From Trichodelitschia bisporula (Eukaryota), in assembly GCA_010356995.1 (NCBI GenBank), contig ML996693.1:1178001-1242000 (forward strand): a stretch of DNA of 64,000 nucleotides, given 5' to 3'. The position numbers were made by a program, and so were the translations under genes. How positions within the stretch are numbered: the first letter of the stretch is position 1; each line of letters begins with the position of its first letter. The notes beneath the pieces are model-generated. The model was not told the DNA's origin. It saw nothing but the letters and a program-made list of their open reading frames with translations, and did no database searches. Below are positions 55,285 through 59,018 of the stretch, piece after piece.

Positions 55285-55766
55285 GGCGGTAGATGGTGAG
55301 CTAGCTTCACCCAAAACGAACTGTATGAACTGTAGTTTGCATGCGTATGGCGCTCAGAAATCAAGTTGTTTTCTAGGAAGTGAGCATGACCGATGAGCGT
55401 GATGCCGTTCTTGTGTTAACGGAGCAGCGGGAAGCAGAAAGCTAGTCACTGCTTCAGCTTTCGAAGCTGTACACAATGCAGTCCTGTGCACATGTGCTAC
55501 TTGTTAATGGCGGGCCACCTTCGGGCAGAACTGGTGGAGCTCGGGGATTGGGATGAAGCTCGGATCACTTCCGTGTCTTTTTTTCGGAGCGGAAAAACTT
55601 TACACCGAAAAAGGTTAGGTATTTCTTTCGCGACGCATCCCCGAAACCGAAACTTCTTCAACCACCAGCTTGCAGCTTTGCAGCTCCCACCCCACAGCCA
55701 GCGCTGGCCGCTGGCGACTGATTGTATCTGTCGCATCGAGGTAAGCAGATCGACTCTTCCTTTCAC

Positions 55767-55849
55767 TACAATGATGAGGAGCAAAAACACGAACAATCCA
55801 ACTCCTATCAATCGTGAGGATCATAAGCTCTACAATCTCTCTGAACTGT
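55767..55849 (+). ncRNA. Box C/D snoRNA guiding the 25S A-loop region (G2917-equivalent; SNORD69-like)
   Basis: Box C ATGATGA 55771-55777; guide GAACAATCCAAC 55791-55802 complementary to 25S GUUGGAUUGUUC; D' CCTA 55804-55807; C' GTGAGGA; box D CTGA 55841-55844. Confidence 0.78.
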
Positions 55850-56014
55850 CACGGCCCTCGATTTGTTCGTCACCCGCTGTGTTCCCCAGCTAACAGTGTA
55901 CAGAAATTTCTCACTGTAGCACTGCGACGTGCCGACAAGACGCTGACCGCAGCGCCCTGCTGCAACTGCGCTCCCACAATCTCAAAAGGTACACATTGCA
56001 ATTTCTTTTCTCTC

Positions 56015-56105
56015 TGGGATGATGATAATGTGACATCGGAAAGGCATTCCTCGATCTGAATTCAATGTGGATCACGTCTTTAAAGTTTCAGCCTTGTCTG
56101 ACCTC
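56015..56105 (+). ncRNA. snR41: Box C/D snoRNA, snR41-like (18S Gm1126 guide) with a second 18S guide
   Basis: Box C 56019-56025; D' guide AGGCATTCCTCG 56042-56053 with CTGA 56056-56059; D guide AAGTTTCAGCCTTG 56083-56096 complementary to 18S CAAGGCUGAAACUU; box D 56098-56101. Confidence 0.85.
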
Positions 56106-56182
56106 TGTCATTCTGCTTATCTTTGCACGTTCTTTGCGACCGTAGCTAACCACAAGCAGGTACATTTGCTCCTCTCCATCTC

Positions 56183-56315
56183 TCCAATATGACGAAACTT
56201 GACGAACGGGCGGTCATACTGCGTTCTCCTCGGCCGCGTCCGCCAAACAGGACGTACAATCCTGGGGCGTGGGCTGGGGAAGAACTTGCTGAGAACTCGT
56301 CAGCTGAACATTGGA
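56183..56315 (+). ncRNA. snR70: Box C/D snoRNA snR70 (18S Cm1639 guide)
   Basis: Terminal stem TCCAAT/ATTGGA; box C ATGACGA 56189-56195; guide ACGGGCGGT 56206-56214 complementary to 18S ACCGCCCGU, D' CATA places the +5 rule on the expected C; box D 56304-56307; lies between the snR41 and snR51 homologues. Confidence 0.82.
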
Positions 56316-56392
56316 CACACCGCCATGGTGCTTGAACTATTGTGGGCAAAGCTGACCGGTTCAGGTACATGTGCTCGTCTTTTTCTTGGTTC

Positions 56393-56558
56393 CCATCAAT
56401 ATGATGATCAACATTCACACTGTGTGATTGGACTGGCGTGTAAACGACGTCAGCTCCAAATGATCTTACAACACTGAAAATTCTGATTTAATGAGGTATG
56501 TTCGACCCCCAAGTCCAGGCCCGGGAATGACGCTAACTGTCGCAGCCTGATTTGATGG
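56393..56558 (+). ncRNA. snR51: Box C/D snoRNA snR51 (18S Am100, 25S Um2729) interrupted by a 50-nt intron (56496-56545)
   Basis: Terminal stem CCATCAA/TTGATGG; box C 56401-56407; D' guide ATTCACACTG 56413-56422 with GTGA; D guide CTGATTTAATGAG 56483-56495, then intron, then C and box D CTGA 56547-56550. Confidence 0.87.
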
Positions 56559-56686
56559 CTTTTGCCTTTTGCTGCTTCAATGTGTGGAGGCTAGCCGCTG
56601 ACTATGTCGCATTCTAGGCAAGTTCGTCAGGTTGTGGGAGTTGTGCTTGAGAGCCTGTGGTAAGCCGCCCCTCTCCTTTTCCCCTC

Positions 56687-56769
56687 TAGCCTGATGAGAT
56701 ACACGAGACGCTGCGTTCTTCCTGAGTGCGCCGATGAAGAGACAACTCACCTTGGAGACCTGAATGCTA
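56687..56769 (+). ncRNA. Box C/D snoRNA with 5.8S A43 guide and 25S guide (SNORD55/U55-like site)
   Basis: Stem TAGC/GCTA; TGATGA 56692-56697; guide GCTGCGTTCTTC 56710-56721 (5.8S GAAGAACGCAGC) with CTGA 56722-56725; guide CACCTTGGAGAC 56748-56759 (25S GUCUCCAAGGUG) with CTGA 56760-56763. Confidence 0.85.
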
Positions 56770-56912
56770 CTGCTCCACTTGCTTTAAAAATCCGGTCGAG
56801 GCCCCGCTGACTGGTGACAGGACTCTGAAAATCGGCTCGGCCGATGTAGATAGCAATGTATACCCATGCAACCCGATTCTCTGAATGTGCGTGCTCCGAC
56901 CATTAGTGACTA

Positions 56913-58088
56913 CTATATCCAGTAATTATCCCAATTGAACTTGAGTGCCTCGTTTCCCCACGAGCACCAGCCGGCGACGAGATGGCGTGCATAAATTTCC
57001 CATGCATTATACCAGATGGGGCCCTCGCGCTCCGCGTACCCTGGCAGCAGTGGCTCGAGCAGCTCCTTGAGGCAGGGCTTGCGCGAGTGCAGGTCCGGCA
57101 CACCAGCAATGACCCTTCGCGCCGGCTCCTCGCATGCTGGCGCGCCCTTGCGCCCGACAAGCAGCATCTCCCACGGGCATCTCCACGCGCCGTCGAGCGG
57201 CGTGACAGGCTCACCAGCTTCGGTTATCTTCACCCAAATCCACTCCTCGACCAATGTCACGCCCCAGGCATCGAATATGCCGTTCCGGCCGAGCACGGAG
57301 TTACGCACAGCAGCCTTGTTCGTGATCCACACCGCCACTATCCCGTCTTTGACAGTAGACCATTGATAGGCCTGCGCCAGACCGACGAGTTCAGCGGTAA
57401 GGACATCAAGGGTGCGGGTTGTAGGGTAGGCGCTGCTGCGACCAGCGGACTTATTCGGCCAGGGCGGATCGAGGAGGAAGAGGCTGACTGATGCGCGATT
57501 GAGGTGCGGTGGATGTGATGGGATCGTGTGTAGCGTATGGGTTGTGAAGGGGGGAAGATGGAAGTTTATATGCTGGGGTCGCCACGTCGGGGTTGGGATG
57601 GAGATGTGCAGGGTGAGGGATTGCGGAGCGCTGGTCGCGTTGCTGTATGAGCCGGGGTAGTTGGAGCAGAAGAATGGAGGCGCGGGAGGCGCAGTGATGG
57701 TGTATGTACGCGCTGGGACCGGGTTAATGGCACCGAACAGGAGGGCCGGGAGGCTGGCTTCTGTCTCGGTATCGGCTGGCTGGTTTGTCCGGCGGGGATG
57801 GCACCATGGCCCCGTGTGTTGGGAGCTGATGTCAGGCAGGGCCGCGCGGATTAGCGCGATGTAGATGTCCCGCTTTGGGCCGGAGTTTTGTGATGAGAGG
57901 CGCTCGCGCGCTGCTTCGCTTTTGGGTTCGGGAGTGGTGTAGGGTGCGGTTGGCGGGGGGCGGGAGAGGAGGTGCCGGGTTGCGGGGGCGTAGGGTGTGC
58001 CTTGTGCGTGGGCGATTGATGTCGGGATGTCGATGAGGGTGATTGTGTGGGAGGGGTTTTGGTAGAGGATTGGCGGAGGGAGAGGCAT
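56913..58088 (-). CDS. MT-A70 family N6-adenine methyltransferase, METTL4-like (391 aa)
   Basis: Single exon from ATG 58088; LLDPPWPNKS catalytic motif, VAVWITNK, EEWIWVKIT..GEPV, VPDLHSRKP, EIYARHL..GWCSWGNEALKF. Confidence 0.9.
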   Translation of the reverse strand: MPLPPPILYQNPSHTITLIDIPTSIAHAQGTPYAPATRHLLSRPPPTAPYTTPEPKSEAARERLSSQNSGPKRDIYIALIRAALPDISSQHTGPWCHPRRTNQPADTETEASLPALLFGAINPVPARTYTITAPPAPPFFCSNYPGSYSNATSAPQSLTLHISIPTPTWRPQHINFHLPPFTTHTLHTIPSHPPHLNRASVSLFLLDPPWPNKSAGRSSAYPTTRTLDVLTAELVGLAQAYQWSTVKDGIVAVWITNKAAVRNSVLGRNGIFDAWGVTLVEEWIWVKITEAGEPVTPLDGAWRCPWEMLLVGRKGAPACEEPARRVIAGVPDLHSRKPCLKELLEPLLPGYAEREGPIWYNAWEIYARHLVAGWCSWGNEALKFNWDNYWI

Positions 58089-59018
58089 GGTGATATTGAA
58101 GGGGAGGTAGGGAGAGGGTAGGTTTTGGGAGGTTGAGTTTACGATCTGGATGGTGTGGGAGAATTGCGTTTGGTGATTGTGAGTGTTGAGTGTCGTGGAG
58201 GGGTGTGGTTTGGGGATCTGAGGTGGTTGTCTGCTGGTGACGCAGATGCGGATTGAGGCTCGATCCCGGGTTTCCCAATTCGGCTGCATGCTAATTTGGA
58301 TCGAGATAGAGAGCCCGGACTAGCAGAAAGAAGCTTTGCCATTCACATGACGGACATTTTACTCCGTCAGTGTGGAGTATTAGCTTGTCCGATGCTACCC
58401 GCCGTCAGGTGCCGAGGGGAAAGGTGAGGGGATCGCTGGTGGGGATTTACGGGCCGGGACGAAAAGGCGAAGCAGAGAAGCCGAAAGCGGAGAACAATAA
58501 AGAAGAAAGCGAAGATGGATGAATCTCGTGAACGATACTTTATCAGGCAAACCGTCGTTGGTGTTGAGCATCCGGCTAGATCATTGTTCACTAGATCATC
58601 GTCGTTGTGTAGAAGATCTCATGCCTATCTCCGTCTCACGTTCTCCATCTCCGTTCTCGGCAACCCGGCCGGCCTTTTCCAAGGGGTGAAGTCACTCGTC
58701 ACTCCGCCCCCCCCGGCTCCCCCGACCCCCCGAGGTCAGTGCGCTGACGCAACCGTTCTCAACTCTTTTTCGCCATCCATCCGCAGCGCCAACCCGCTGC
58801 CAACCCTTCTCCACACGCTGCTTCTCCACTCCACCCAAACCTAGCGACTACATACCAAACATACTTCATGGCCAGCCCCAGTATCTCATTGCTGGCTTCC
58901 TTCGCGCTGAGGTAGTCTCCCCTGCGCCTCTTATCCGAGCGAGCGCGGGATGCAAGACCGCCTCGCAGGGCATGAGCAGCACCTCCAGCCTCCGCCCTCC
59001 TCGACTCCTTCTCCTCAA

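Follow-up and report, generated by a model that had tools for sequence, protein, structure and literature searches.

How can a small nucleolar RNA (snoRNA) be assembled when its guide and its box D are separated by an intron, while the snoRNA is itself the cargo of another intron? This question is raised by positions 56393-56558 of a stretch of Trichodelitschia bisporula DNA (GCA_010356995.1, contig ML996693.1, 1,178,001-1,242,000, forward strand), which is 64,000 nucleotides (nt) long and is referred to below as the window, all coordinates being those of the window. With high probability, this segment represents the gene of the box C/D snoRNA snR51 (CD_6 family), located in the last of three exon-less introns (I-III) of a host gene and split between the 18S guide and box D by an ancestral intron, the "intron B" of Luo et al. 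(2013; PMC3596301). The core of the original prediction, made from the sequence of the window, was that a true spliceosomal intron interrupts the snR51 orthologue, and that its removal creates both the guide/box D arrangement and the terminal stem; this core is supported by the contig, comparative and covariation data presented below.

Organization of the interrupted snR51 gene

By direct reading of the sequence, all the motifs originally predicted were found in their places, and further elements were delineated between them:

56393..56399, + strand, 5' arm of the terminal stem, CCATCAA, pairing with 56552-56558
56401..56407, + strand, box C, ATGATGA, aligned to box C of the Rfam snR51 and snR67 models
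56413..56427, + strand, D' guide ATTCACACTG (56413-56422), spacer T and box D' GTGA (56424-56427); A56419 is the fifth base upstream of box D'
56461..56466, + strand, putative box C', TGATCT, recognized by eye; its position and TGA core are kept in related loci as ATGAAC, ATGATC or GTGAAC
56471..56486, + strand, U2724-type guide ACACTGAAAATT (56471-56482) followed by the proximal CTGA (56483-56486); A56478 is the fifth base upstream
56483..56495, + strand, 18S A100 guide CTGATTTAATGAG, completed by C56546 upon splicing; U56492 pairs with the target A, and the segment aligns to the guide of Rfam snR51
56496..56545, + strand, inner (nested) spliceosomal intron of 50 nt, corresponding to intron B, with GTATGT at 56496-56501, GCTAAC at 56532-56537 and CAG at 56543-56545
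56547..56550, + strand, distal CTGA, one base after the inner acceptor, box D of the spliced snoRNA
56552..56558, + strand, 3' arm of the terminal stem, TTGATGG, a perfect complement of 56393-56399

The branch A of the inner intron is 56536, 9 nt short of the 3' splice site. Outer intron III has all its splice signals intact, its donor being separated from the inner intron by 131 nt and its branch by 51 nt. Three of the features by which a box C/D snoRNA is recognized are present, i.e., box C, box D together with a terminal stem, and a guide of at least 10 nt opposite a residue known to be 2'-O-methylated. Its identity as snR51 follows from both guides (18S A100 and 25S U2729) and from its place in the snR41-snR70-snR51 cluster, with an Afu_455/snR41-like RNA located upstream.

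Removal of the inner intron

Splicing of the locus was analyzed using the contigs of two small sequencing runs (X1 and X2), both from one sample of one study, which were mapped to positions 55500-57200. The RNA nature of the runs is not on record, and they were taken as cDNA on the basis of five GT..AG joints and of the depth bins that are empty in both runs, namely 55500-55670, 55842-55898 (inside host intron A) and 56697-56810 (inside host intron C). Two of the joints, 55740>55904 and 55988>56160, occur in X1, and the other three, 55988>56618, 56495>56546 and 56659>56821, in both runs.

The joint 56495>56546 removes exactly 56496-56545 (50 nt with GT..AG ends) and is carried by one contig per run: record 4 of X1 (438 nt, depth 20.3, covering 56158-56493 and 56544-56645) and record 8 of X2 (556 nt, depth 54.9, covering 56040-56493 and 56544-56645), the shorter side of the joint being 102 nt long. 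The interior of the inner intron is covered by zero contigs, being bridged instead. Thus, the junction proposed as the hallmark of inner splicing is spanned by contigs of two runs, and removal of the intron in these two runs, together with the GTATGT, GCTAAC and CAG signals, confirms the assignment of the inner intron to the spliceosomal (U2-type) introns.

The contigs carrying this joint run unspliced through 56364/56365 and 56617/56618, that of X2 also through 56159/56160, and the inner intron is therefore removed while the outer introns are still present. The earlier claim that inner splicing precedes outer splicing holds in so far as the contigs lacking the inner intron still contain introns I-III; that this order is obligatory we infer from these contigs and from the excised outer lariat being no longer a normal splicing substrate. 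A joint of 56365 to 56545, linking the outer donor to the inner acceptor, had been proposed to act as a switch; it was not among the five joints of the two runs, contigs being able to show the presence of a joint rather than its absence.

Guide register and rRNA targets

In yeast, snR51 guides methylation of 18S Am100 and 25S U2729 (PMC3938493). The pairing of the window RNA with ribosomal RNA (rRNA) was judged on the yeast and Neurospora crassa sequences printed in the cited papers. After removal of the inner intron, the distal box D (56547-56550) is located one base past the 18S guide, and U56492 becomes the fifth base upstream of it, so the predicted dependence of the A100 register on splicing is borne out. 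Segment 56483-56495 together with C56546 complements both 18S arms of the DNAzyme 10-23-snR51-A100, the unpaired A100 facing U56492 (PMC3938493). The second predicted target, 25S U2729, was likewise corroborated: the D' guide ATTCACACTG with box D' GTGA represents the same guide, in the same register, as the D' guide of N. crassa CD6, which is paired to 26S-Um2687, the N. crassa equivalent of U2729, and the CD6 homologue is named there as yeast snR51 (Liu et al., 2009; PMC2780460).

Conservation of the nested intron in relatives

Metagenome contigs were scanned with two guide motifs, which yielded at least 116 loci; the figures given from here on are for the matches listed, i.e., 117 sequences (116 listed loci and the window), of which 93 remained after removal of duplicates, 75 with the intron and 18 without it. 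The 117 sequences fell into four classes:

91 of 117, a GT donor right after AATGAG, then 46-68 nt, AG, one base and box D
21 of 117, intron-less
4 of 117, contig ending just past the GT donor
1 of 117, a false match without box C (L108)

The nested intron is thus kept across relatives, 91 of the 117 sequences showing it in the same register. The distal box D stands one base past the acceptor in all of these (91/91), being CTGA in 74 and CCGA in one of the 75 unique intron-bearing loci; since the regular expression itself demanded AG, one base and box D, the weight of this statistic rests on the failures being only four, all cut by a contig end. Across the 75 loci, the inner intron is 46-68 nt long (median 53), its commonest donor is GTATGT (30/75), a CTRAY branch (CTAAC, CTGAC, CTAAT or CTGAT) is found in 72, and the acceptors are CAG (33), TAG (25) and AAG (17). 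The direct contact of an acceptor with a donor just before the outer intron of snR51 is shared as well: NAG|GTR occurs 37-59 nt upstream of box C in 75/75 loci vs 4/75 in the reverse-complement control. As single deviations, the CCGA box belongs to locus L089, while L048 has an inner intron with a GC donor (GCAAGC).

Among the 18 unique intron-less loci, nine have the sequence AATGA+GC+CTGA, identical to the predicted spliced junction, eight have the yeast-like AATGA+CT+CTGA and one has GA at this place. Intron-less loci occur on long contigs (L072, L006, L008, L029 and L031, on contigs of 16-112 kb), and L072, genomic as judged from its 55-kb contig, has flanks resembling those of the intron-bearing L036 and L064. 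It reads as the spliced product of the latter two, and this comparison of sequences suggests that intron B may have been precisely lost in some lineages. Intron-less L049 (1109 nt) and L115 (3576 nt) may be transcript-derived, should the contig collection include transcripts, and were left out as cases of genomic intron loss.

The possibility that the motifs and the stem of the window are coincidental and that the joint is a contig error is practically negligible. Nothing in its favour was found apart from the joint resting on one sample, and it is opposed by the recovery of the same joint in both runs, where its shorter side spans 102 nt, by the same architecture of 75 unique listed loci, by the covariation of the stem (see below), and by the independent description of the arrangement (PMC3596301).

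A terminal stem closed across the intron

The original prediction also held that the terminal stem closes only beyond the inner intron. In the window, the two arms form a perfect 7-bp complement, the pairs of which have probabilities of 0.76-0.99 after splicing and of 0.64-0.92 before it. For the relatives, duplex energies were calculated between the 16 nt upstream of box C and the 16 nt after the distal box D, and compared with those obtained upon swapping the partners between loci (200 permutations). In the 75 unique intron-bearing loci, own partners gave a mean of -7.94 kcal/mol vs -4.45 ± 0.25 kcal/mol for the swapped ones (best -5.30), and with all 93 unique loci the values were -8.44 vs -4.19 kcal/mol; in neither set did any of the 200 permutations reach the observed mean. 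The stem sequences are diverse, with 60 distinct 5' arms. Consequently, the terminal stem spanning the inner intron covaries, and the earlier claim stands.

Recognition by covariance models

The Rfam snR51 model (RF01214), applied with relaxed thresholds, matched the window at 56397-56503. The model guide matches that of the window, while the model box D lands on the inner donor GUAUGU, and the unspliced genomic sequence, at 31.8 bits, does not reach the gathering score of 44 because its box D is displaced by 50 nt. The scores of the related loci were as follows:

L029, intron absent, 57.2 bits
L006, intron absent, 54.1 bits
L072, intron absent, 52.1 bits
L049, intron absent, 46.3 bits
L115, intron absent, 39.5 bits
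L036, intron present, 43.0 bits
L064, intron present, 38.6 bits
L026, intron present, no snR51 match at E<=1

As judged from L072 vs L036 and L064, displacement of box D costs about 9-13 bits. Thus, covariance models miss the intron-bearing snR51 on genomic DNA (31.8-43.0 bits vs 44) because the nested intron displaces box D.

The Rfam snR67 model (RF01177) aligned to 56397-56488 with 21.8 bits, not reaching its gathering score of 55. Its last 17 positions, comprising the D guide and box D, are 17/17 identical to the window, and the posterior probabilities are low elsewhere; identification of the window RNA as snR67 was rejected on the basis of this score and of the good match being confined to these positions.

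The proximal CTGA and its guide

The segment matched by the end of the snR67 model deserves separate consideration. The 12-mer ACACTGAAAATT (56471-56482) agrees in 11 of its 12 nt, with no shift of register, with the D guide that N. crassa CD49 has for 26S-Um2682 (PMC2780460), and its exact copy is present in 32 of the 93 unique listed loci, 30 of them with the intron and two without it. As in snR67 (25S U2724) and CD49, the guide of 11-12 nt directly precedes CUGA in the same register; unlike theirs, it is part of an snR51, with a CUGA that also starts another guide. In the survey of Canzler 2018, the U2724-type guide is listed as a D-box interaction of snR51, the proximal CUGA being taken as box D in some lineages, and the U2724 target is assigned to snR51 in Onygenales and part of Dothideomycetes, to snR67 only in Saccharomycotina and to snR54 (CD_49) in Sordariales. 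The original prediction had considered the proximal CTGA (56483-56486) solely as an alternative 3' end that would speak against the split gene; this view has to be modified in that a conserved guide of its own precedes this CTGA, while the reading of the locus as a split snR51 is still upheld.

It is possible, though rather doubtful, that box C also works with the proximal CTGA, the product being a short RNA (about 95 nt) or else another conformation of the long one; this product would methylate the U2724 equivalent via ACACTGAAAATT and that of U2729 via the D' guide; the ratio of the forms would then hang on which is first, assembly of the small nucleolar ribonucleoprotein (snoRNP) on the proximal box or inner splicing. 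If the ACACTGAAAATT guide is at work, box C would need to pair with the proximal and not with the distal CUGA. Such a use of two D boxes is favoured by the 17/17 match to the terminal part of Rfam snR67, which comprises its guide and box D, by the register shared with the CD49 guide, by the presence of one U2724 carrier per lineage (Canzler 2018), and by retention of the 12-mer in 32/93 listed loci despite dissimilar inner introns (median similarity ratio 0.52), the base directly before the 12-mer being common to only 0.66 of these loci. However, the group of loci with the 12-mer was defined by a regular expression, which makes its internal identity circular, and CTGA is fixed by the 18S complementarity anyway, so that its presence is not independent evidence of a box. 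Additionally, segment 56471-56482 could represent accessory base-pairing beside the U2729 site, a concept introduced elsewhere (PMC3116282), snR51 not being named for such pairing in the relevant passages of that paper.

The stem data gave no support to a pairing of box C with the proximal CUGA. The flank after the proximal CTGA showed no locus-specific fit to the 5' flank (-5.99 vs -6.11 kcal/mol upon permutation, 158/200 permutations reaching the observed value), this being a weak control in view of the nearly constant flank. In the window, the proximal duplex has an energy of -3.3 vs -9.9 kcal/mol for the distal one, and the distal duplex is the more stable in 46 of the 75 loci. The longest run of contiguous pairs averaged 3.25 in the guide-bearing loci vs 3.79 in the others; as this score (offsets <=4) underrates bulged or more distant stems, the duplex energies are preferred. 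Considering both sides, we put forward only tentatively, and with still less confidence than the use of two D boxes as such, that in the lineages keeping ACACTGAAAATT, including that of the window, one gene combines three guides for rRNA with a choice of two D boxes, of which the proximal would serve U2724 and the distal, after splicing, A100, both being combined with U2729. If so, the kinetics of snoRNP assembly, in competition with nested splicing, would determine in what proportion one precursor yields two ribosome modifications, and the annotations of Luo et al. (2013), with box D past the intron, and of Canzler 2018, with the proximal box D, would both be right.

An exclusively short snoRNA, ending at the proximal CTGA, with the 50-nt intron being merely an alternative intron of the host and with the distal CTGA and the stem unused, appears very improbable. 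It would agree with the description of N. crassa CD6 as an exon-encoded RNA of 76 nt with the D' target only (Liu et al., 2009; PMC2780460), with the snoStrip annotation, according to which box D is the proximal one (Canzler 2018), and with the alignment of box D of Rfam snR67 at the proximal CTGA. On the other hand, it leaves unexplained the acceptor followed by one base and box D in 91/91 sequences, the covariation of the stem beyond the intron, and the occurrence of box D in the same place in the intron-less relatives that pass the snR51 gathering score. Retention of the A100 guide would also lack an explanation in, e.g., N. crassa, which has no U2724 guide at this place, and the 18S duplexes drawn in Additional file 4 to the same work include no A100-type one (PMC2780460). 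The cloned 76 nt of CD6 end exactly at CUGAUUUAAUGAG and are followed by an uncloned "gua", i.e., the donor of intron B (PMC2780460); a clone stopping right at the donor is what would be expected if its remainder failed to align to the genome.

Several points nevertheless weigh against the split snR51 as the full account of the locus. Both runs come from one sample of one study, their RNA nature being deduced from the joints, and the ends of the mature RNA lie beyond what contigs can show. The register of the distal box D was built into the sorting of the sequences. The intron-less L115 scores 39.5 bits, and absence of the intron therefore does not always lift the score past 44. Finally, the conserved second guide just upstream of the proximal CTGA implies that the spliced form may not be the sole product.

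Relation to described systems

The split snR51 with its nested intron was reported from filamentous ascomycetes before (Luo et al., 2013, PLoS One 8:e58547; PMC3596301), and the novelty which the original prediction had left to be verified is thus to be withdrawn. According to that work, intron B is located between the antisense element and box D of the intronic snR51 in all Euascomycetes examined and was gained once, in their ancestor, while 42 expressed sequence tags (ESTs) show stepwise removal of the exon-less introns I-II-III in the 5'-to-3' direction: 18 lacked intron I only, 14 lacked I and II, and 10 lacked all three (PMC3596301). In the window, too, intron III of an exon-less I-II-III array houses an snR51 whose antisense element and box D are set apart by an intron, which is precisely the arrangement defining the Euascomycete snR51 with intron B. 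Moreover, the window is alike, part for part, to snoRNA cluster III of that study, including the flanking introns associated with U45 and U55, no structural difference being seen against the published text. Beyond that text, the present analysis adds RNA evidence for T. bisporula, the count over 93 listed unique environmental loci, covariation of the stem across the intron, and the coexisting U2724-type guide, which is not discussed there; Figures S4-S14 of the paper (alignments and ESTs) may already depict the terminal stem, or show when intron B is removed. Our search for later literature on the functional side of a nested snoRNA intron in fungi found none.

Yeast snR51 (RF01214) shares with the window RNA box C, the D' guide, the A100 guide, their register and membership in the snR41-snR70-snR51 cluster (PMC3938493); unlike the window, its gene has no intron, as in the eight unique listed loci of the yeast-like type. 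N. crassa CD6 shares the D' guide, the position of box D' and the A100-type sequence followed by "gua", and differs in the absence of the U2724 guide before the proximal CUGA; in the pertinent parts of its description, neither a D guide nor an intron is noted (Liu et al., 2009; PMC2780460). With stwintrons, the locus has in common an intron within an intron, the inner of which should go first (PMC8469720). In a stwintron, what the inner intron interrupts is a splice signal of the outer one. Since the interrupted element is here the snoRNA cargo, and the donor (56365), branch (56597-56602) and acceptor (56615-56617) of the outer intron are intact, interpretation of the locus as a stwintron was discarded.

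The host gene

Positions 55741-56820 on the + strand comprise a non-coding snoRNA host gene of the filamentous-ascomycete kind, which is a conserved cluster of the snR41-snR70-snR51 type:

55741..55903, + strand, host intron A with a box C/D snoRNA (box C 55771-55777, box D 55841-55844); GT..AG joint 55740>55904 in run X1 only
55989..56159, + strand, host intron I with an Afu_455/snR41-like snoRNA at 56015-56103 (RF01860, 63.2 bits, gathering score 48)
56160..56364, + strand, host intron II, with no exon toward introns I and III; cag|gtacat at both ends
56365..56617, + strand, host intron III (outer intron), with the split snR51 as cargo; donor GTACAT at 56365, branch GCTGAC at 56597-56602, acceptor TAG at 56615-56617
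56618..56659, + strand, host exon of 42 nt between introns III and C; joints 55988>56618 and 56659>56821
56660..56820, + strand, host intron C with an Afu_294 / SNORD39-55-like snoRNA at 56687-56766 (RF01506, 49.1 bits, gathering score 43); joint in both runs

Introns I, II and III abut without exons, with cag|gtacat at 56159/56160 and at 56364/56365, and all three are removed in the joint 55988>56618 of both runs. The "host intron" 56365-56617 of the original prediction is therefore correct as to its donor and acceptor, and has to be redefined as the third of three abutting introns; a joint using donor 56365 on its own was not among the five of both runs, with the above reservation that contigs show presence and not absence. 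In the joint 55988>56160 (X1 only, depth 5), intron I alone is gone and the exon is fused directly to GTACAT at 56160. The contig bearing it resembles an intermediate of recursive splicing, the abutting layout itself being already present in Luo et al. (2013; PMC3596301).

The snoRNA of intron A (55771-55844) has no Rfam match; its box C is followed by a stretch (CACGAACAATCCAAC) similar to the D' guide with which N. crassa CD17 targets 26S-Gm2875. In intron II, a C/D-like RNA was discerned by eye at about 56183-56315, with a variant box C ATGACGA (56189-56195), CTGA (56304-56307) and a 6-bp stem TCCAAT (56183-56188) / ATTGGA (56310-56315); it matched no Rfam family at E<=10, and by its position in the cluster it would occupy the snR70 slot. 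The exon starting at 56618 opens with GCAAGT, a lookalike of a GC-type donor right after the acceptor TAG; as this stretch is used as an exon, its use as a donor is improbable. Downstream, an open reading frame of 458 amino acids occupies 56913-58289 on the - strand, its stop lying about 90 nt from the last host intron. The unstranded contigs of 3.5-4.4 kb that run past 57200 probably fuse this convergent gene with the last exon of the host.

Biogenesis and significance

On these grounds, the following course of events may be proposed for the split snR51. The inner intron, the removal of which is itself observed, would be spliced out first, with the outer introns still in the transcript. Excision of the outer intron as a lariat would follow; after debranching, exonucleases would trim it to the RNA of about 116 nt that the snoRNP protects. 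As in the known biogenesis of intronic box C/D snoRNAs, the site of core protein assembly would be the C/D kink-turn, which the terminal stem closes, box C (56401-56407) and box D (56547-56550) being presumably clamped by the 7-bp stem in the mature RNA. In the latter, U56492 would direct 2'-O-methylation of the equivalent of 18S A100, and A56419, with box D' GTGA, that of the equivalent of 25S U2729.

Some U3 snoRNA genes of yeasts and other fungi also hold a spliceosomal intron, splicing of which is needed for the mature RNA; they are transcribed independently, without a host intron around their own. The snR51 locus is a rare case in which pre-mRNA splicing builds a non-coding RNA that is itself the cargo of an intron and thereby imposes an order of splicing, the window being a further instance and not a new kind. 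Published snoRNA catalogues disagree on this family, CD6 being entered as an exon-encoded single-guide RNA of 76 nt and box D being placed by snoStrip at the proximal CTGA. Taken together, the data point to the spliced snR51 as the 18S A100 guide of Pezizomycotina, and a second box D for the U2724 guide would bear on how one snoRNA gene serves several sites.

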